DNA from: a virus
Lineage: Duplodnaviria; Heunggongvirae; Uroviricota; Caudoviricetes
Length of the DNA: 39,816 nt
Direction: 5' to 3' (one strand)
IMG/VR virus record: IMGVR_UViG_2541047807_000001
Location: 1 to 39,816 of that record
Positions 3,427 through 38,584 of this stretch are shown here, piece after piece. The first letter of the stretch is position 1. Each line of letters begins with the position of its first letter. A program made the position numbers and the translations under genes. The notes under the pieces were generated by a model that was not told where the DNA came from, made no database searches, and saw only the letters and a list, made by a program, of their open reading frames with translations.

Positions 3427-4304
3427 GCAATGATATCGCAATCACATCACAACCAGGCGCAACTGTAGGTACTGCTGCGGCAATCTTCAGCCCGGAGGGC
3501 ATGAATCAACTGGTGCGTTTCGCGGAGTTGATGTCACAAAGCAAAGCGACTGTACCGAAACATCTTGAAGGCAAACCTGCCGATTGTCTGGCGGTGACCA
3601 TGCAGGCGGCACAGTGGGGAATGAACCCTTTCGCCGTGGCGCAGAAAACGCATATGGTAAACGGAACGTTAGGCTACGAAGCACAGTTGGTAAACGCGGT
3701 CGTATCCTCTTCCAGCCTGCTAGCGACACGCCTGAATTATCGCTGGAGCGGTGACTGGTCGAATGTTAACGGCAAAACAGATAAATCACCGAATCTGACG
3801 GTAACTGTGTCAGCAGTTCTTAAAGGAGAAGCAGAACCCCGTGAGCTTACCATCAGTATGGCGCAAGCCGGAGTGCGTAACTCTCCATTGTGGGAACAGG
3901 ATCCGCGCCAGCAGCTTGCCTATCTTTGCACGAAACGATGGGCTCGCCTGCACGCTCCTGATGTACTTCTCGGTGTTTACACCCCTGACGAATTACAGGA
4001 AACGGCACCGCGCGTTGAGCGAGACATTACTCCGCAAACGACTACTGCTGCGGGAATGAACAGTCTGATCAACGCTAAACCAGTGAAAAAGCCTGATGAG
4101 CAAACGCGTAAAGCGGATAGCCGTGATCCAGAAGAAATGCTGATGGCCTTTACCAGCGCAGCGATGAATTACAGCACTGTCTCCGAACTGGATAAGGCTT
4201 ACAAATACATTGCACAAAAACTTTCAGATGATGACGAACTGCTGGCAAAAGCCACCGACGTTTACAGCGTTCGTCGGGAAGAATTAAACGAAACATCTAT
4301 GTAA
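3423..4304 (+). CDS. RecT-family single-strand annealing protein
   Basis: Conserved RecT-like core (PADCLAVTMQAAQWGMNPF ... NGTLGYEAQLVNAVV); paired with the upstream exonuclease. Confidence 0.7.
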   Translation: MSNDIAITSQPGATVGTAAAIFSPEGMNQLVRFAELMSQSKATVPKHLEGKPADCLAVTMQAAQWGMNPFAVAQKTHMVNGTLGYEAQLVNAVVSSSSLLATRLNYRWSGDWSNVNGKTDKSPNLTVTVSAVLKGEAEPRELTISMAQAGVRNSPLWEQDPRQQLAYLCTKRWARLHAPDVLLGVYTPDELQETAPRVERDITPQTTTAAGMNSLINAKPVKKPDEQTRKADSRDPEEMLMAFTSAAMNYSTVSELDKAYKYIAQKLSDDDELLAKATDVYSVRREELNETSM

Positions 4305-9754: not shown

Positions 9755-12070
9755 TCATAAAATAGATTTCGTCTTTGTAACAATAATATCTACAAAATCA
9801 CCTGTAGATATAGCTGATGGTACTGTATCTGCAAGAGTAATCTTTTCTGAAGAGATGTTTTGCACATCTAATAATTTATTTTCAACCCCATCCGTATATA
9901 CCAATTTGACATCACTGAATGGAGGGTAATAAGTGACTGTTCCTTGGTATACATATATTTCACTGCCTGAAATTGATTTCACTACATACCTGCCCCTTAC
10001 AAGATTAATTTTGAGTTCAGATAAATCGGTTTTATAACAGGTAATTCCTGAACCAATGTTAGCCATACTAATATCAGTATCACTATAATAAGTAATTGCT
10101 TTTCCTTGTTTTAAGGTGAAGTTATCTTTGCTTTTCCTTGGCAAGGATGTGCTATTTTTGTAATATCTACCAGTTAAGCATAGCCATGAAAATGCAGTAT
10201 TCGCTACATTACCACCAGAATACACAGCTAAACGAATTGCACTAACTGGAACCCCTTCATTATTAATCCTGATCTTAATGGAAGAAATGTTAGCAACAGT
10301 AGCATATCTATGGTTAGATGAATCCCATTGCATAGAAGAAGTTATTGCTTCTGTTTGTGAAGTTATGACATTCCCATCTCCATCTAATGCATACAGGTAA
10401 ATGCGAAACGATGCCGTATCTGCTGAGAATGTAAACATATCACCATTTCTTACTGGTACATCTCCAGATTCCCATAACAACCCAAAATTCCGCATAAAAG
10501 CAAACTTAGAAGAAACTAGGTGACGGATATTATATAAACCATCTACATCTGTTTGATATGCTAATACACCAACTTCTCCATTGTTGGCACTGGATATAAA
10601 TGGGGTGTTAGCATTTAAAGAAAACAATGTTACTTCATCGGATATATTTTCCTGAACATGAAATACTGCATTCCCCTTGCCATTATCAGTTACCTCTACA
10701 TAAGTGTAAGGTGATGGATTGTATGGTTCATTTGTATAGTAAGGAGAACTTAACCATGAAGCCTCAATTGAGTTATTCCACGTATATTCACCAAAGTTAA
10801 TTATCAACTGTTGGTTAGTTGGGGATGATGGATATCGTTCAAAACGAAACCCGTAGAAGTAATTGTTATCACCTCTTTGAATATCAATTTTACCTGCCCC
10901 CTCCATAGTTCCACCATAAAACTTATTGTGGTTATGATGATATGGATTATCAGCGAAAATGATATTATTCGTACGATTCAGATAAAAATAGTTTTCATTT
11001 ATCCATCCGTTCTCAACTCCAAGAAAATGAATTGTATCGACCTTTTTCAGGTTAAAGGTTGAGTATGCTATTGAATAATCCGTCGATGCCACCGAAGCAT
11101 TATAATTTGCATATAACTGTAAGTAGTCGCAACGCTCAATGTTAATATGCTGCCCTTTTGCCCCGATAATACGAATATCCGGTGTCGTTTCAGATGAAAT
11201 ACCAGAATTTCTGATAATCGTTCCGAAGTTTTGTCTTGGGTTGTTAGGGTTTGATGCATTCCCGCCAAGCAATACCCCTATTCCTGAGTGGGATATGGTA
11301 AAAACAGCATTGGTCATTTCGAGGCTGACATTACGAAGATTTAATGTCTCCGTAATAATAAAATTACCTTCCGCTCGTAATGTTCTGGATGATTCTCGTG
11401 CATATTCTGCAGCCAGGATCAATGCAGATGTATCATCTGTTATACCATCGCCTTTTGCCCCAAAATCGCGAACACTAACGGTGTCTCTCATCTTATCCTG
11501 GAACGTTCGGTATACTGCTCCAGAACCATACTGAATAAACCAACCAAAACCACCAACAACCCCGGCGATTGCAGCATCGACATAATTACGCATTGAGCGA
11601 TTATTTACAGCGTCCTGCTCAAGTGATGGATCTGCAAGGTTAGAAATTTTGTTTTGCTTTGCATCGTAATATTTTGCAAGCAAAGATGGTTTCATCAATG
11701 CACGTCTGAACCACCCAAAACATTGCTGGATCAGCATCGTCAGGTAGTCAAAAGCATCTTCATGCACTTCGGGGAAAAATTTTCCCTGATTGCGAAGATC
11801 TGTCTCCTGCACTACATCAAGCACACGATCTATCGTAATTCGCCAGCCAGCAGCAAGCGGAGACGGCAGAACCACTGAACCGCCACTATAAGTGCCCGCC
11901 CCAGTTACCGTATAACCGGTATCCAGAACCAATTCTGTTACGTTCCCGTTCAGGTCAGACACCTGAACAACCAGGTCTGATTTTCTGAAAATTCGAAAAG
12001 TATACGGAAACGATGTCGTAACGCCGTTACCTGTGTATTCGTTGTGGTCAACTTCGGTTGAGACCGTCAT
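9755..12070 (-). CDS. Tailspike / receptor-binding protein with T7 gp17-like N-terminal adaptor and pectate-lyase-like beta-helix
   Basis: N-terminus MTVSTEVDHNEYTGNGVTTSFPYTFRIF is tail-fiber-adaptor-like; VRDFGAKGDGITDDT is a beta-helix depolymerase signature. The gene is visibly AT-rich versus its neighbours. Confidence 0.8.
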   Translation of the reverse strand: MTVSTEVDHNEYTGNGVTTSFPYTFRIFRKSDLVVQVSDLNGNVTELVLDTGYTVTGAGTYSGGSVVLPSPLAAGWRITIDRVLDVVQETDLRNQGKFFPEVHEDAFDYLTMLIQQCFGWFRRALMKPSLLAKYYDAKQNKISNLADPSLEQDAVNNRSMRNYVDAAIAGVVGGFGWFIQYGSGAVYRTFQDKMRDTVSVRDFGAKGDGITDDTSALILAAEYARESSRTLRAEGNFIITETLNLRNVSLEMTNAVFTISHSGIGVLLGGNASNPNNPRQNFGTIIRNSGISSETTPDIRIIGAKGQHINIERCDYLQLYANYNASVASTDYSIAYSTFNLKKVDTIHFLGVENGWINENYFYLNRTNNIIFADNPYHHNHNKFYGGTMEGAGKIDIQRGDNNYFYGFRFERYPSSPTNQQLIINFGEYTWNNSIEASWLSSPYYTNEPYNPSPYTYVEVTDNGKGNAVFHVQENISDEVTLFSLNANTPFISSANNGEVGVLAYQTDVDGLYNIRHLVSSKFAFMRNFGLLWESGDVPVRNGDMFTFSADTASFRIYLYALDGDGNVITSQTEAITSSMQWDSSNHRYATVANISSIKIRINNEGVPVSAIRLAVYSGGNVANTAFSWLCLTGRYYKNSTSLPRKSKDNFTLKQGKAITYYSDTDISMANIGSGITCYKTDLSELKINLVRGRYVVKSISGSEIYVYQGTVTYYPPFSDVKLVYTDGVENKLLDVQNISSEKITLADTVPSAISTGDFVDIIVTKTKSIL

Positions 12071-12175
12071 GTTAAATCTCCAGATAGTCGCAGCACCCGT
12101 TGCGCCGCATATCTGGTTATTCTATTACCCATAAAACCATATATGGATAGAAAGACTGTGAATATGAATAGATAT

Positions 12176-12190
12176 TACCTTTCAGGTAAT
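12176..12190. promoter_or_regulatory. Repressor operator-type site TTACCtttcaGGTAA
   Basis: Perfect TTACC-N5-GGTAA palindrome upstream of the antirepressor-like gene. Confidence 0.5.
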
Positions 12191-12244: not shown

Positions 12245-12266
12245 TTATTGCATGGAGAAGATTAAG

Positions 12267-12524
12267 ATGCAGCAGTATCACTATCCACTGGAAGACGGAT
12301 TTACCGAAAGGATTCACACGCCGGGAGGCGTCAGGTCACTGGTGGAGGGATCGCACTTGATGAAATTACTCCGGGATCTCGATAAGGATGGATTTAATGT
12401 CGATGGCCCACTTGCCGAACTGACTGCACTGATTAACTACGTCACCAGCTCACAGATGTCTATGCAGGATCTGCAAACACATCTCGACTATTGTGCCGAA
12501 CAATTACGAAAGCAAACCAGATAA
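12267..12524 (+). CDS. Small antirepressor-like protein (stand-alone paralogue of the antirepressor C-terminal domain)
   Basis: HLMKLLRDLDKDGFNVDGPLAELTALINYVTSSQMSMQDLQTH parallels LLMNLLNQLQEDGHDVSGAAAELTTMFCYIVGVSKCLRDIQTH in the downstream antirepressor. Preceded by the LexA box. Confidence 0.5.
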   Translation: MQQYHYPLEDGFTERIHTPGGVRSLVEGSHLMKLLRDLDKDGFNVDGPLAELTALINYVTSSQMSMQDLQTHLDYCAEQLRKQTR

Positions 12525-12555: not shown

Positions 12556-12570
12556 TTACCTTTGCGGTAA
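12556..12570. promoter_or_regulatory. Repressor operator-type site TTACCtttgcGGTAA
   Basis: Perfect TTACC-N5-GGTAA between the two antirepressor-like genes. Confidence 0.45.
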
Positions 12571-12837: not shown

Positions 12838-13523
12838 TGACTGCTAACGTAACCCCATCTGTTTTTCATTTTGAATCAGAAGCAACCATTCGAGCCATTG
12901 TTATTGATGGAAATCCTTGGTTTGTTGCCAAAGACGTTATTAAAGCTCTTCAACTGACAAACCCCACTATGTCAATAAAATCTCTTGATGATGATGAAAG
13001 GGCTAAATTTAACTTAGGCCGTCAAGGCGAAACCAATATTATCAACGAGTCAGGCCTCTACACACTGATCCTCCGCTGCCGCGACGCAGTGACACCAGGC
13101 ACTATCCCCTACCGCTTTCGTAAATGGGTTACAGGTGAGGTTCTTCCTCAGATCCGCCGCACCGGAAGTTACATTAAAAACTCGCTCCCGCAGGAAGAAC
13201 GCATAAAGATGGTTGCCGACCAGGTAGCCAACGCCATAGCATCAGCAGTGATGCAGGCAATGAAGATAGAGAACAAAACCTACAGTGCCCCGCTGAAGCC
13301 CGGCTACCGCAGTCTGATTCATTCGCCGTCGGGTGTTCTCGGCCTGACGGAGAACTCACTGCTGATGAATCTGCTGAACCAGTTACAGGAAGACGGGCAT
13401 GACGTATCGGGCGCGGCGGCGGAGTTGACCACCATGTTCTGCTACATCGTCGGTGTGAGCAAATGCCTGCGTGATATCCAGACCCACGCGGAGTACATCA
13501 ACGACAAGGCAGGGTTCTTCTGA
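12838..13523 (+). CDS. Antirepressor (Bro-N / AntA-type N-terminal domain)
   Basis: FHFESEATIRAIVIDGNPWFVAKDVIKALQLTNP is a Bro-N/Ant signature. RBS aaggtga before ATG 12838; the longer ORF-track start at 12684 lies in the terminator T-run. Confidence 0.7.
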
Positions 13524-13594
13524 CGGCGGCGGCACAGGGATGTGCCTTTAAATAATTCTGTACAGATTGCAGACTGTGGGTGAATAGCGTACTA

Positions 13595-13609
13595 TTACCT
13601 CAAGGGTAA
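13595..13609. promoter_or_regulatory. Repressor operator-type site TTACCtcaagGGTAA
   Basis: Perfect TTACC-N5-GGTAA upstream of the toxin-like module. Confidence 0.45.
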
Positions 13610-13669
13610 ACGGATTGGTTTCATTTTTATTAATCCGTGTAATGAACTTATGAGATATGAGGTAATGTC

Positions 13670-13849
13670 ATGCGAAACGAAAAATTGCAGATGCGTAGAG
13701 CGCAAGCTGCCGCAAGACGTTCTTTCAATGGAAGCGTAGAGTACGTAAAAGTTACTATGACAAAAGATCACGCAAGTCGCGTATCCCGCGCTTTCTTTGA
13801 TTCTCGTAACAATAAGGAAAATTATGAGTTCGTCTGCGTCGCAGAATGA
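13670..13849 (+). CDS. Small basic protein overlapping the start of the toxin-like gene (candidate partner or antitoxin)
   Basis: 59-codon ORF with RBS gagg 8 nt upstream; overlaps the next gene by 26 nt. Confidence 0.35.
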   Translation: MRNEKLQMRRAQAAARRSFNGSVEYVKVTMTKDHASRVSRAFFDSRNNKENYEFVCVAE

Positions 13850-14369
13850 TAAAAATCAAATTGTCAGATATAAGGGTCGAGTGTTGCATACGCAAAATTT
13901 CTCGGCCCTTTGTGCATCTGATCTTGAGCTGAAGAAAGTATCTGATGCCTTTACCCAGTATTGGAAAACGGGATACCATCCATCTCTTGGTAAAGATGCT
14001 GCATTTGCTCGTCCGACAGAAATGCTTAAACTAAATGTCAGGCATACTCATGTCGATAACCAAGACTATATTCCAGAAGATAGTGATAAAAAACACACTG
14101 GTAAAAAATCATCTTGGGATGCATGGAAAAATATAGCGTCTGTACAAGTAAAATGCATACCAACAAGTGATTGCTTTTTAGTTTATTCGGTAAATCACAA
14201 TCGTGATGCGCTGGTTATGTTTTTTGTTGACGCAGATGCTCACAACATAACTGAGCAAGAAGAGTTTAAAGAGGAAGCAATCACTATCAGTTATCAATTC
14301 TTTGAGAAAACAAAAACAGAACCAATGCCTTTAGAAGAAGATCTTTTTTCTGATAAATGGAAGGAATAG
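13824..14369 (+). CDS. YafO-like toxin family protein (candidate ribosome-dependent mRNA interferase)
   Basis: Three blocks in YafO order: YWKTGYHPSLGKDAAF, LNVRHTHV, CFLVYSVNHNRDALVMFFVDADAH, matching my recollection of E. coli YafO (...FGRDALY.., ..ERVAHIHL.., ..AHLVYCQGAFDEQAWLLIAILKPEPH). RBS aaggaaaa before ATG 13824. Confidence 0.5.
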   Translation: MSSSASQNDKNQIVRYKGRVLHTQNFSALCASDLELKKVSDAFTQYWKTGYHPSLGKDAAFARPTEMLKLNVRHTHVDNQDYIPEDSDKKHTGKKSSWDAWKNIASVQVKCIPTSDCFLVYSVNHNRDALVMFFVDADAHNITEQEEFKEEAITISYQFFEKTKTEPMPLEEDLFSDKWKE

Positions 14370-14390
14370 CCCGCAGCGCGGGCTTTTTTG
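14368..14390 (+). terminator. Rho-independent terminator
   Basis: agcccgc-agc-gcgggct hairpin followed by six T. Confidence 0.55.
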
Positions 14391-14460
14391 TGGACGAAAC
14401 AAAAGTCAGTGCTACACTCATTGACGCCACATTGAGGTGGCTTATAGATGGAAATTTCAC

Positions 14461-14623
14461 AATGAAAAAAGCATTTGCTGCACTGTTCGTTTTGTTGTCT
14501 CTGGTAGCTTCAACTCAGGCCTTTGCCGGTCGTTGTCAGCACGACAGCGATACTGCTGCTGACGGCTCCCGCTGCGGTGGGCGTTCTGCGGATTCCCGTC
14601 CGGGCGGCGGTGGCATTCGTTAA
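14461..14623 (+). CDS. Small secreted peptide with signal peptide, Cys-containing and Gly-rich
   Basis: MKKAFAALFVLLSLVASTQAFA signal peptide, then a 31-aa mature part. Own sigma70-like promoter TTGACG-16-TATAGA just upstream. Confidence 0.45.
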
Positions 14624-14659
14624 AAACAAGGCCGCGAAAGCGGCCTGTGACATGTCACG

Positions 14660-15109
14660 CTACTTGCGAAATCTTTCTTTACCCTTCCAGCCAGTAGATG
14701 TTAGTTCAGGATGAATGGTTCCCAATATAAAGCCAACCATAGCGGAGCGAGGATCTTCTATTTTATCCGTTAATTCTTCGGCATAACTCACAGGCAACCA
14801 AGCAACAAGATCACCAATCCTCAGCTTTGGTCCTTTGCTGTAAGATGAATCGGCAATAACAAAAAATCCACCATCAGCTGAGCACACCTTCAGCATTGCC
14901 CTTTGTCTTCCAGAATCTAGCAAAACTGGCTGTTCCCCACTGGGACCAGGTATGATGATGGCTGGCATTGGTTTATTGGCTGAAAGGCTTGTGTCAAGAT
15001 ACTTACACGCATACTCAAAAGCTGAAAAGTTATCCTTAAAGATAAGAGGTTGAATTTTATTGCTAACCTCCTTACCACCGATTAATCTGTTGATCATCTT
15101 CTTGAACAT
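14660..15109 (-). CDS. Hypothetical protein (AT-rich accessory gene)
   Basis: ATG at 15109 with RBS aggtga; about 150 aa; opposite orientation to flanking accessory genes. Confidence 0.5.
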   Translation of the reverse strand: MFKKMINRLIGGKEVSNKIQPLIFKDNFSAFEYACKYLDTSLSANKPMPAIIIPGPSGEQPVLLDSGRQRAMLKVCSADGGFFVIADSSYSKGPKLRIGDLVAWLPVSYAEELTDKIEDPRSAMVGFILGTIHPELTSTGWKGKERFRK

Positions 15110-15121
15110 AAAGGTCACCTA

Positions 15122-15562
15122 ATGATTAAGCCGATGCACGCTATTACAGCTACCGTTTTGTTTATCCTACCAATTTTTTCGTTTGCAAACGACATATGTT
15201 TTAAGAATTTAATAAATGAGGATATGTGTGCACATGCAAACAAAATCGCATCAGAAGCAGGAAAGTCACTTCCCATAAAATTGAATGATAATATGTCTAT
15301 TGTTTCAATAAATGCAATACTAAACAAACTTTTAGTTGTAGCGCATCTTAATTACAACAACAGCTATTTATCAAAAGTTTATAATGGTGATATAACCTTA
15401 GAAAATAAATTAAAGAGTGTGATGCGAAATTATTCAAAATCGAGCATTTGCTCCAACAGGCAAATGAAAGCATTTATTCACCTTGGCGGAGAGATTGAGT
15501 ATAGGTATGTATTTAGTGATGGCAATATATTTGATACATACGCCATCACTAATTGTGAATAG
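15122..15562 (+). CDS. Hypothetical periplasmic or exported protein (AT-rich accessory gene)
   Basis: N-terminal hydrophobic signal-like segment ITATVLFILPIFSFA, four Cys, low-GC composition. Confidence 0.5.
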   Translation: MIKPMHAITATVLFILPIFSFANDICFKNLINEDMCAHANKIASEAGKSLPIKLNDNMSIVSINAILNKLLVVAHLNYNNSYLSKVYNGDITLENKLKSVMRNYSKSSICSNRQMKAFIHLGGEIEYRYVFSDGNIFDTYAITNCE

Positions 15563-30983: not shown

Positions 30984-31020
30984 TTGACATTTAACGCACG
31001 AATTATTACCTTTCAGGTAA
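30984..31020 (+). promoter_or_regulatory. Promoter-like element with overlapping repressor operator
   Basis: TTGACA (30984-30989), 17-nt spacer, weak -10 TACCTT overlapping TTACCtttcaGGTAA (31006-31020). Reads toward the leader, tRNA and moron gene. Confidence 0.4.
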
Positions 31021-33603: not shown

Positions 33604-34196
33604 TGATTGCCATCCTGACGTTCTTTCAGTCTCTTCCTGGCTGCCGCTATGCGATCAGCAATTGTCACATTCACATTAACATCCAGGCGTTCTTTGAATG
33701 CATTGACATCGACGTGCTTACCAATCAGCTCAAGGTTCTTCACCTTGTCAGGCCATTTAATTTTTTTGAGGATTGTCTCTATCGAATCCTCGTTCATGTT
33801 CATGATGGTCGATGACAGATCAAAGCCGCTAAGCGTAGTGCGCCAGATTTTCGGCCACTCGCGGATTGGCTTAAGGCTCCCATCGTCGTTGAGGATGTCG
33901 ATCACGTCCATCTGGTCGATCTCCACCAGGCGCATGAGAACGTAATCAGCACTGACGCGCATTCGTTTGTTGCGCTCCTCCATCAACTCGGCAATCCGTT
34001 TTTGAATGCGTTCATCGCGCATCATGACACTGGCTTTAACTGCCGCTGTATTTGGGGAGAATCCTGCATTAATCGCTGCCTGAGTCTGGTTTTCAGGCGT
34101 TTTGATGTATGACTGGCAATAAGCCTCCTGCATTGCTGTTAGTGGCTTAAATTGCGTTGATTTGCGTTTATAGGTTTTAGGTTCAGCAGGCATCAT
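33600..34196 (-). CDS. Terminase small subunit
   Basis: MPAEPKTYKRKSTQFKPLTAMQEAYCQSYIKTPENQTQAAINAGFSPNTAAVKAS is a small-terminase N-terminal pattern. Start ATG at 34196 or 34193; the longer ORF-track start includes 5' UTR repeats. Confidence 0.65.
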   Translation of the reverse strand: MMPAEPKTYKRKSTQFKPLTAMQEAYCQSYIKTPENQTQAAINAGFSPNTAAVKASVMMRDERIQKRIAELMEERNKRMRVSADYVLMRLVEIDQMDVIDILNDDGSLKPIREWPKIWRTTLSGFDLSSTIMNMNEDSIETILKKIKWPDKVKNLELIGKHVDVNAFKERLDVNVNVTIADRIAAARKRLKERQDGNQ

Positions 34197-34313
34197 AACC
34201 ACCGTGGTAATAGTTACCGTTGTGGTAATAGTACCATGCAAAATAAAGCCGCCATAGTTGGCGGCAGTATTCAAAACCATCAAATTCATCATGCATAATC
34301 TACTCGTGACATG

Positions 34314-38470: not shown

Positions 38471-38537
38471 TTACCCCTGAGGTAATTAAAAACCACATAA
38501 GACACGAAATCAATAGAGTTTAGAATATTTTATTACC
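38471..38537. promoter_or_regulatory. Operator pair between the P-like gene and the next early gene
   Basis: TTACCcctgaGGTAA (38471-38485) and TTACCcagcaGGTAA (38523-38537). Confidence 0.45.
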
Positions 38538-38584
38538 CAGCAGGTAATTATCAAGACGTAAAAAAATGCGCTATCGCGCTGGTA

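Follow-up and report, generated by a model that had tools for sequence, protein, structure and literature searches.

A mobile two-gene cassette with a long-form YafO-family protein and an overlapping upstream partner in a Uetakevirus temperate phage of Escherichia coli

The IMG/VR virus record IMGVR_UViG_2541047807_000001 (positions 1 to 39,816; this whole stretch of 39,816 nucleotides is called the window) stems from Escherichia coli and represents a temperate phage or prophage of the phiV10/epsilon15-like kind (Uetakevirus). Phage EC.W1-9 matched window bases 641-25000 with 97% identity over 81% of the query, while about 54% of the first 25 kb had matches in phiV10, at 95.7%. We analyzed a cassette of two overlapping genes in this window, which encode a small basic protein and a YafO-family protein. 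It comprises the following features:

13567..13595, + strand: sigma-70-like promoter (-35 TTGCAG at 13567-13572, 17-nt spacer, -10 TACTAT at 13590-13595)
13594..13609, no strand: operator palindrome ATTACC-N5-GGTAA, over the -10 region and the expected transcription start
13611..14367, + strand: leader and both genes, forming the exchangeable cargo in the Uetakevirus slot
13659..13663, + strand: Shine-Dalgarno sequence GAGGT of the small gene
13670..13849, + strand: gene with ATG start for a 59-residue basic protein, candidate antitoxin and/or regulator (PHROG 6685)
13814..13818, + strand: Shine-Dalgarno sequence AAGGA of the toxin gene, within the small gene, ending 5 nt ahead of the ATG at 13824
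13824..14369, + strand: gene for a 181-residue long-form YafO-family protein of RelE/HigB fold, putative mRNA endoribonuclease toxin (PHROG 1651)
14368..14390, + strand: intrinsic terminator AGCCCGC-AGC-GCGGGCT plus T-run (stem 14368-14384), starting in the toxin stop codon

An initial annotation of the window had reported the open reading frames (ORFs) 13670-13849 and 13824-14369 with an overlap of 26 nt, a palindrome (TTACCtcaagGGTAA) at 13595-13609 and the terminator, all of which we recovered at these positions. The two ORFs lie in different frames, and their overlap suggests that translation of the small gene and of the toxin gene is coupled. The promoter agrees with the consensus at 7 of 12 positions and stayed under the threshold of the promoter scanner. 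The Shine-Dalgarno region of the small gene (ATGAGGTG/A-ATGTC-ATG) was kept in all 13 aligned loci, and in most related loci a GCCCGC-loop-GCGGGC-T6 stem follows directly 3′ of the toxin stop codon. A scan of positions 13300-14800 against Rfam disclosed no RNA family, so that nothing points to an RNA antitoxin as in type I or type III systems; a search of NCBIfam gave no match. The leader also contains a perfect 9-nt inverted repeat (13594-13602/13658-13666; GAGGTAAT), in which the left half-site of the operator pairs with the Shine-Dalgarno region of the small gene. This hairpin was rejected as a riboregulator, its z-score of -1.86 being not significant and its left arm lying probably upstream of the transcription start.

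The 181-residue product matched the Pfam family YafO_toxin (PF13957) with 26.3 bits (E 8e-6), residues 46-152 being aligned to profile positions 3-92 of 101; the gathering cut-off of this family is 25 bits. All 23 family members tested matched YafO_toxin at E<0.01. When a profile made from these 23 sequences was run against 1.84e9 representative sequences, 70 proteins were recovered, among them canonical YafO proteins of 131-134 residues (E 4e-6 to 9e-4), which reach 83-93 bits on PF13957. This library-wide search superseded a single-sequence hhalign comparison of the family with K-12 YafO, which had given a weak probability of 6%. In a joint alignment of 22 sequences including YafO of E. coli K-12, F43, G56 and H76 were invariant, while G50, P64, Y121 and H140 were conserved in at least 90% of the sequences, and the proteins formed a continuum from short to long forms. 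The blocks F..YW..G...GKD...RP, RH.H and TSD..L.Y...AH aligned with those of canonical YafO proteins, the K-12 protein included. Thus, the three YafO blocks and the two terminal extensions recognized in the initial annotation were borne out by the Pfam match and the K-12 alignment, which revealed an insertion besides. The additions consist of some 19 residues at the N-terminus, roughly 30 inserted residues (80-112, with the invariant W98) and a C-terminal extension (residues ~164-181) with the conserved acidic tail MPLxEDLFSDKW; the long-form family keeps this extension throughout, and canonical YafO lacks it. With 181 residues, extensions at both termini and the insertion, the protein departs from the compact single domain of about 130 residues that is typical of YafO. 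The long-form subgroup comprises about 70 clusters at 50% identity.

A structure was predicted with AlphaFold2. A first model based on 23 close homologues had a predicted local distance difference test (pLDDT) score of 57 and was discarded in favor of a run with an alignment of 52 sequences, whose score was 92.4; the C-terminal tail reached about 92-96. The model shows a RelE-like alpha/beta fold of the RelE/ParE (BECR-fold) superfamily, as the initial annotation had anticipated. A sequence search of the PDB found a solved relative neither for this protein nor for the 59-residue protein. For the toxin gene, the ratio of nonsynonymous to synonymous substitution rates (dN/dS) was 0.10, which means strong purifying selection. 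We concluded that the 181-residue product is a YafO-family protein with a RelE/HigB (BECR) fold. One might object that this YafO-like protein is catalytically silent and now serves a non-toxic purpose such as ribosome or RNA binding, the small ORF being unrelated co-transcribed cargo. The marginal Pfam score, the large insertions and extensions compared with YafO and the acidic character of the protein would suit this idea. However, about 70 diverse relatives retain H76, Y121, H140 and the T/S-S/N-D motif, all shared with canonical YafO, with few or no exceptions, the low dN/dS value points the same way, and the gene is strictly paired with the small gene in every context, so that we regard a silent protein as very unlikely.

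Upstream of the toxin gene, an ORF of 55-67 codons overlapping its start by 8-26 nt was present in 52 of 52 loci. In 13 diverse loci, dN/dS of the small gene was 0.27 in its own frame as opposed to 0.95-1.06 in the other two frames. Purifying selection in this frame only, together with the presence in all loci, demonstrates that the 59-residue ORF is a real gene. In RefSeq E. coli chromosomes it is left out by the NCBI pipeline, so that the toxin alone is annotated over the cassette. The family members always have 59-60 residues (13 protein clusters) and share the motif VTMTKEHAxRVSRAFYDS. The N-terminal half is rich in arginine and alanine, and PHROG 6685 lists the protein as "unknown function". 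Comparison with Pfam and with PDB chains gave no match, and there was no similarity to the repressor of the phage with its two helix-turn-helix (HTH) motifs. The view that this basic partner (isoelectric point 10.0) does not resemble YafN/Phd-type antitoxins was confirmed by hhalign, which returned a probability of 0.1% for the family versus YafN. A weak similarity over 18 residues (RMTITKEKLKRIS vs. KVTMTKEHASRVS; hhalign E 0.0015, probability 17%) was seen to an ORF located upstream of a toxin homologue on an Acinetobacter plasmid. The genes downstream of the toxin gene differ in every context; since no downstream gene is conserved, a reversed, HigBA-like arrangement is excluded. The overlapping upstream gene is the only conserved partner of the toxin gene, and we propose its product as a candidate antitoxin of no known family.

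To describe the surroundings of the cassette, the following features of the window are needed:

1213-1797: gene for the two-HTH repressor (194 residues)
9755-12070: tailspike gene
15563 onward: internal virion protein genes

The cassette had initially been placed among tail genes. It does lie near the tailspike gene; its surroundings are, however, an accessory and antirepressor region with the tailspike gene on one side and the internal virion protein genes on the other. The sequence of phage phiv142-3 coincides with that of the window over the promoter and operator and departs from it right after GGTAAA (~13611); at precisely the terminator stem (~14367), both phiv142-3 and EC.W1-9 become identical to the window again. 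Between these points, EC.W1-9 harbors an overlapping gene pair for proteins of 108 and 167 residues, the latter transmembrane (L003 13808-14609), and phiv142-3 two ORFs of about 55 residues each (L002 2624-3100). As the flanks are common to sister phages with other cargo, promoter, operator and terminator constitute the frame of an exchangeable slot, and this frame belongs to the regulon of whatever binds the operator. Hence, the claim that the cassette has its own operator and terminator is right in so far as it extends from a promoter to a terminator, while these elements are shared with sister phages carrying other genes and the operator occurs phage-wide. The GC content of the cassette is 34-41% versus 45-55% in the flanks. 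As a promoter-to-terminator unit of atypical composition that is present or absent among near-identical phages, the cassette has the properties of a moron or exchangeable cargo, and most Uetakeviruses lack it. A detail of the terminator concerns its loop, which reads AGC in the window and GCT, the reverse complement, in phiv142-3 and EC.W1-9, with an identical stem; possibly, cargo is exchanged by recombination at this hairpin.

In phage TL-2011b, gp45/gp44 are 99.7% identical to the cassette and are labeled "hypothetical protein" (gp45) and "type II toxin-antitoxin system YafO family toxin" (gp44) in RefSeq. Accordingly, "uncharacterised", as the module had been called, fits the unclassified partner; the toxin had already been named by RefSeq in TL-2011b and in E. 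coli chromosomes. Copies in the Uetakevirus slot, which is flanked by the Bro-N antirepressor gene and by genes for internal virion proteins, were found in E. coli, Salmonella, Serratia and Cedecea. The two genes have also moved together into other surroundings. The pair resides between lysis genes and HNH/terminase genes in two lambdoid prophages, beside a P4-type primase gene in Pectobacterium and, with 45-50% identity and a partner of 63 residues, within a siphovirus tail module. Distant relatives (22-28% identity) occur on small Rep3/Mob plasmids, each after a non-overlapping small upstream ORF. On Acinetobacter-type plasmids of this kind, long-form YafO homologues adjoin BrnT/BrnA and a reverse-transcriptase gene (L062 180-2829; L057 1-3513), which suggests that small plasmids carry "defence/addiction islands". 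The cassette was detected in 61 of 5426 complete E. coli genomes (~1%) and, furthermore, in prophages of Salmonella, Serratia, Citrobacter, Hafnia, Klebsiella and Pectobacterium. The Salmonella copies found were in epsilon15-like prophages; for a yafO-like gene of the Salmonella prophage mTmII (PMC9836087), membership of the family could not be shown.

This distribution also bears on the question whether the 181-residue product is a virion structural or tail-associated protein, which the initial annotation had named as evidence that would speak against a toxin. The reasons to consider it are its location, which follows the tailspike gene and precedes the genes for internal virion proteins, and the divergent copies in a siphovirus tail module. 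Given the RelE/HigB fold, the separate promoter and terminator, the absence from most sister phages and the presence on plasmids and in non-structural regions, a structural role is extremely improbable.

An upstream ORF in all 52 loci, at least four unrelated genetic contexts and purifying selection on the partner are what would be expected of a type II bicistronic system. We therefore consider it probable, with some reserve, that the cassette represents a type II-like toxin-antitoxin module of two genes, carried as mobile cargo by a Uetakevirus temperate phage. The ribonuclease activity and toxicity of the larger protein and its neutralization by the smaller one are presumed from homology and gene arrangement, and the pay-off for the carrier may be defence or addiction.

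The operator was studied in the whole window, in which TTACC-N5-GGTAA occurs in 10 exact copies and in 15 copies with at most one mismatch, compared with 0.77 expected; 0 of 100 shuffled sequences reached that number. The sites are located at:

1095-1157, 1855-1931, 12175-12189, 12556-12570, 13595-13609, 31006-31020, 34196-34228 and 38471-38547: TTACC-N5-GGTAA sites

Every copy lies just downstream of a -10-like element. Copies flank the repressor gene on both sides and are also found upstream of 12252-12524 and of the Bro-N antirepressor gene, and Uetakeviruses without the cassette carry the same operator sites. Among the 13 diverse cassette loci, the upstream DNA could not be aligned save for the -35 and -10 regions, ATTACC-N5-GGTAA and the Shine-Dalgarno region. 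The TTGnnn-17-TAnnAT arrangement was conserved in all 13 loci and the half-sites of the operator were invariant in 12 of them. The retention of the palindrome amid unalignable DNA indicates that it is under selection. In this phage the operator is most plausibly bound by the prophage repressor, and the set of palindromes looks like a regulon map of the phiV10-type repressor. A literature search found no description of a TTACC-N5-GGTAA operator. The repressor of phage ZX5 was shown by overexpression to be a master regulator, and the repressor sequences of ZX5 and phiV10 were reported to be the same (PMC9782041). Our scan for distant repressor homologues was uninformative, as it retrieved only copies with 99-100% identity.

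A special case is the lambdoid phage L146, which possesses an S24-type cI gene, cII and, at the place of cro, a Cro-like gene. Here the cassette including its promoter forms a block of 1.13 kb in place of 272 bp of a close relative, and the homology with the Kosakonia copy starts at the -35 region. The cassette proteins of L146 are 54-62% identical to those of the window, yet its operator is perfect, and no further copy of TTACC-N5-GGTAA was found in 20.6 kb. A single operator copy in a phage with an S24-type cI suggests that the resident repressor is probably not gating the cassette in this phage. In addition to the operator, which is constant, the cassette lineages carry a second palindrome in the -35/spacer region that differs from one lineage to the next: TTGACG-N4-CGTCAA, CTCAAATTTGAG and ATCAC-N6-GTGAT (L010 ~3745-3760; at the -35 region in L011/L012/L047/L053; in the promoter spacer of L043). 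These may be lineage-specific operators co-varying with the small protein.

Several results weigh against a toxin-antitoxin module. The match to YafO_toxin exceeds the threshold by just 1.3 bits and is marginal taken alone. In Foldseek searches of the PDB and the viral BFVD nothing was significant, HigB2 and HigB ranking first in the PDB with a best E of 0.46. A basic partner and an acidic toxin (isoelectric points 10 and 5.8) reverse the charges usually found in ribonuclease toxins and their antitoxins. In the partner, neither a DNA-binding nor an antitoxin domain was recognized by comparison with Pfam, PDB and YafN, and neither protein matched PADLOC-DB 2.0 at E up to 1. Finally, the operator is common to about 10 other promoters of the phage, so that expression of the cassette may follow the lytic switch rather than lysogeny.

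The last point leads to the possibility that the cassette encodes a repressor-gated ribonuclease of the lytic phase, which would be silent in the lysogen and remodel host or phage mRNA early after induction or infection, causing host shut-off or inactivating early mRNAs, with RegB of phage T4 as a precedent; the arginine-rich 59-residue protein would then tune or time the nuclease instead of acting as an addiction antidote. The phage-wide distribution of the operator, including sites that flank the repressor gene or precede the antirepressor gene, agrees with this possibility, as do the identical promoter and operator in a sister phage with other cargo and the position of the cassette in the late region of its lambdoid hosts. 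On the other hand, a lytic-phase role would be senseless on small plasmids and beside the primase gene, where the pair also occurs. Gating by a repressor is improbable in the lambdoid phage with an S24-type cI and a sole operator in 20.6 kb, and the cargo is dispensable, as most Uetakeviruses lack it. We judge this explanation to be rather unlikely.

The C-terminal tail of the toxin gave rise to another consideration. Its sequence EEDLFSDKWKE (residues 167-181, 14322-14366) resembles by eye the C-terminus of YafN (DDDFNDFKE), and the acidic tail may represent an antitoxin-like segment acting in cis. Conceivably, the 59-residue protein is only a transcriptional regulator at TTACC-N5-GGTAA, while the nuclease is self-inhibited by its tail and serves as a trigger-activated effector. 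An operator that travels with the cassette into hosts without other copies would be in line with such a division of labor, and so would the charge of the partner, opposite to that of a typical antitoxin, and the M-P-L-x-E-x-x-L-F-x-x-K-W extension, which is long-form-wide, absent from canonical YafO and modeled with high pLDDT. The resemblance to the YafN tail, however, covers about nine residues and was noticed by eye, without statistics. Moreover, tight translational overlap and strict co-occurrence are expected of a stoichiometric partner, and comparison of the small protein with Pfam and the PDB disclosed no DNA-binding fold. Self-inhibition thus appears unlikely to us.

As a long shot, the arginine-rich 59-residue protein itself may recognize TTACC-N5-GGTAA, the operator at about 10 promoters of phiV10/epsilon15-like phages, so that the cassette would be a portable, "operator-mimicking" unit with a RelE-fold ribonuclease in reserve. 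If this were true, the cassette would be cross-wired to the lysis-lysogeny switch inside a Uetakevirus. In a lambdoid prophage or another element, the small protein could silence the early promoters of a Uetakevirus entering the cell and thus confer immunity in trans. In both settings, the ribonuclease would be an abortive-infection effector, which is set free when the many operators of the invader titrate the small protein away.

Returning to the toxin-antitoxin module that we favor, transcription would start at the sigma-70-type promoter, whose -10 and +1 positions lie under the palindrome, and end at the terminator abutting the toxin stop codon. Both genes would be on one mRNA and their translation would be coupled. 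By homology, the toxin is predicted to arrest translation via mRNA cleavage, probably on the ribosome, and the 59-residue protein would bind and neutralize it. In this phage, the prophage repressor most likely keeps the cassette repressed until induction, infection or inactivation of the repressor releases it; the small protein of the cassette may also contribute.

Among known systems, YafN-YafO of E. coli comes closest. The toxins are homologous (blocks F..Y..G...G(R/K)D...RP, H.H, (T/S)(S/N)D..L.Y and AH), hidden Markov models match in both directions and the antitoxin gene is located upstream in both cases (PMC11980606, Table 1). A survey of RelE/ParE proteins lists YafO as a small family of about 1K members with antitoxin-toxin gene order (PMC11980606). 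Unlike YafO, the toxin of the cassette has 181 instead of 132 residues, with about 19% identity to the K-12 protein; its partner is a basic orphan of 59 residues and not a YafN of the Phd/YefM type, the genes overlap by 26 nt, and the pair is phage cargo, whereas yafN-yafO belongs to the chromosomal dinB operon. HigB2 of Vibrio cholerae (5mje/8a0x) and HigB1 of Mycobacterium tuberculosis (7nbu) are ribosome-dependent mRNases with 8-9% identity to the toxin and non-significant Foldseek E-values. In higBA the toxin gene comes first and an HTH antitoxin is encoded downstream, while the conserved partner lies upstream here. Like phage morons, the promoter-gene-terminator units of temperate phages, and the immI-type accessory region of P22, the cassette is a self-contained transcription unit of low GC content, variably present among near-identical phages; it is situated between the tailspike gene and ejection or internal-protein genes and beside antirepressor genes. 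Classical morons are expressed from the repressed prophage, whereas the cassette stands behind an operator-bearing promoter and may be repressed in the lysogen. RegB of phage T4 is a RelE/YoeB-like endoribonuclease that cleaves early mRNAs. The cassette likewise provides a phage-encoded RelE-superfamily protein, a presumed nuclease that may act in the lytic phase. Neither the sequence nor the structure comparisons matched it to RegB, however, and RegB lacks a small overlapping partner and stems from a virulent phage.

Some neighboring genes deserve mention. Downstream of the cassette, a 53-residue protein with a signal-peptide-like N-terminus is encoded at 14462-14623 (PHROG 14503, "membrane associated protein"); it is 100% conserved among E. 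coli Uetakeviruses, whichever cargo precedes it. It is followed by two genes of low GC content (31-36%) and unknown function, 14660-15118 on the minus strand and 15122-15562 on the plus strand (PHROG 9944 and 8772). This pair is swapped in TL-2011b (for an Arc-like repressor and Ant) and in EC.W1-9, and the replacement marks 14660-15562 as a second variable cargo site. Upstream of the cassette, the 90-residue ORF 12252-12524 and the region 13260-13523 have a C-terminal module in common, which the ORF shares with the Bro-N antirepressor. Both proteins match PHROG 450/15539, and LLRDLDKDGFNVDGPLAELT and LLNQLQEDGHDVSGAAAELT could be aligned by eye. The ORF looks like a stand-alone copy of the C-terminal domain of the antirepressor behind its own operator-controlled promoter.

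A literature search found no paper characterizing the long-form YafO subgroup or its partner. That a known toxin fold comes with a new antitoxin family is a familiar theme, and the toxin had been named by RefSeq before; the unusual part is the shared operator. Our analysis delimits, within the small YafO family, a branch of long-form proteins and pairs it with a candidate antitoxin of no known family. The presence of a phage-wide operator at the promoter of the cassette suggests that the putative nuclease is coupled to the lysis-lysogeny switch. The cassette is thus a testable case of the use of toxin-antitoxin cargo by temperate phages for defence, addiction or shut-off, and its frequency, about 1% of complete E. 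coli genomes, is high enough to make it relevant to studies on phage-host interactions.

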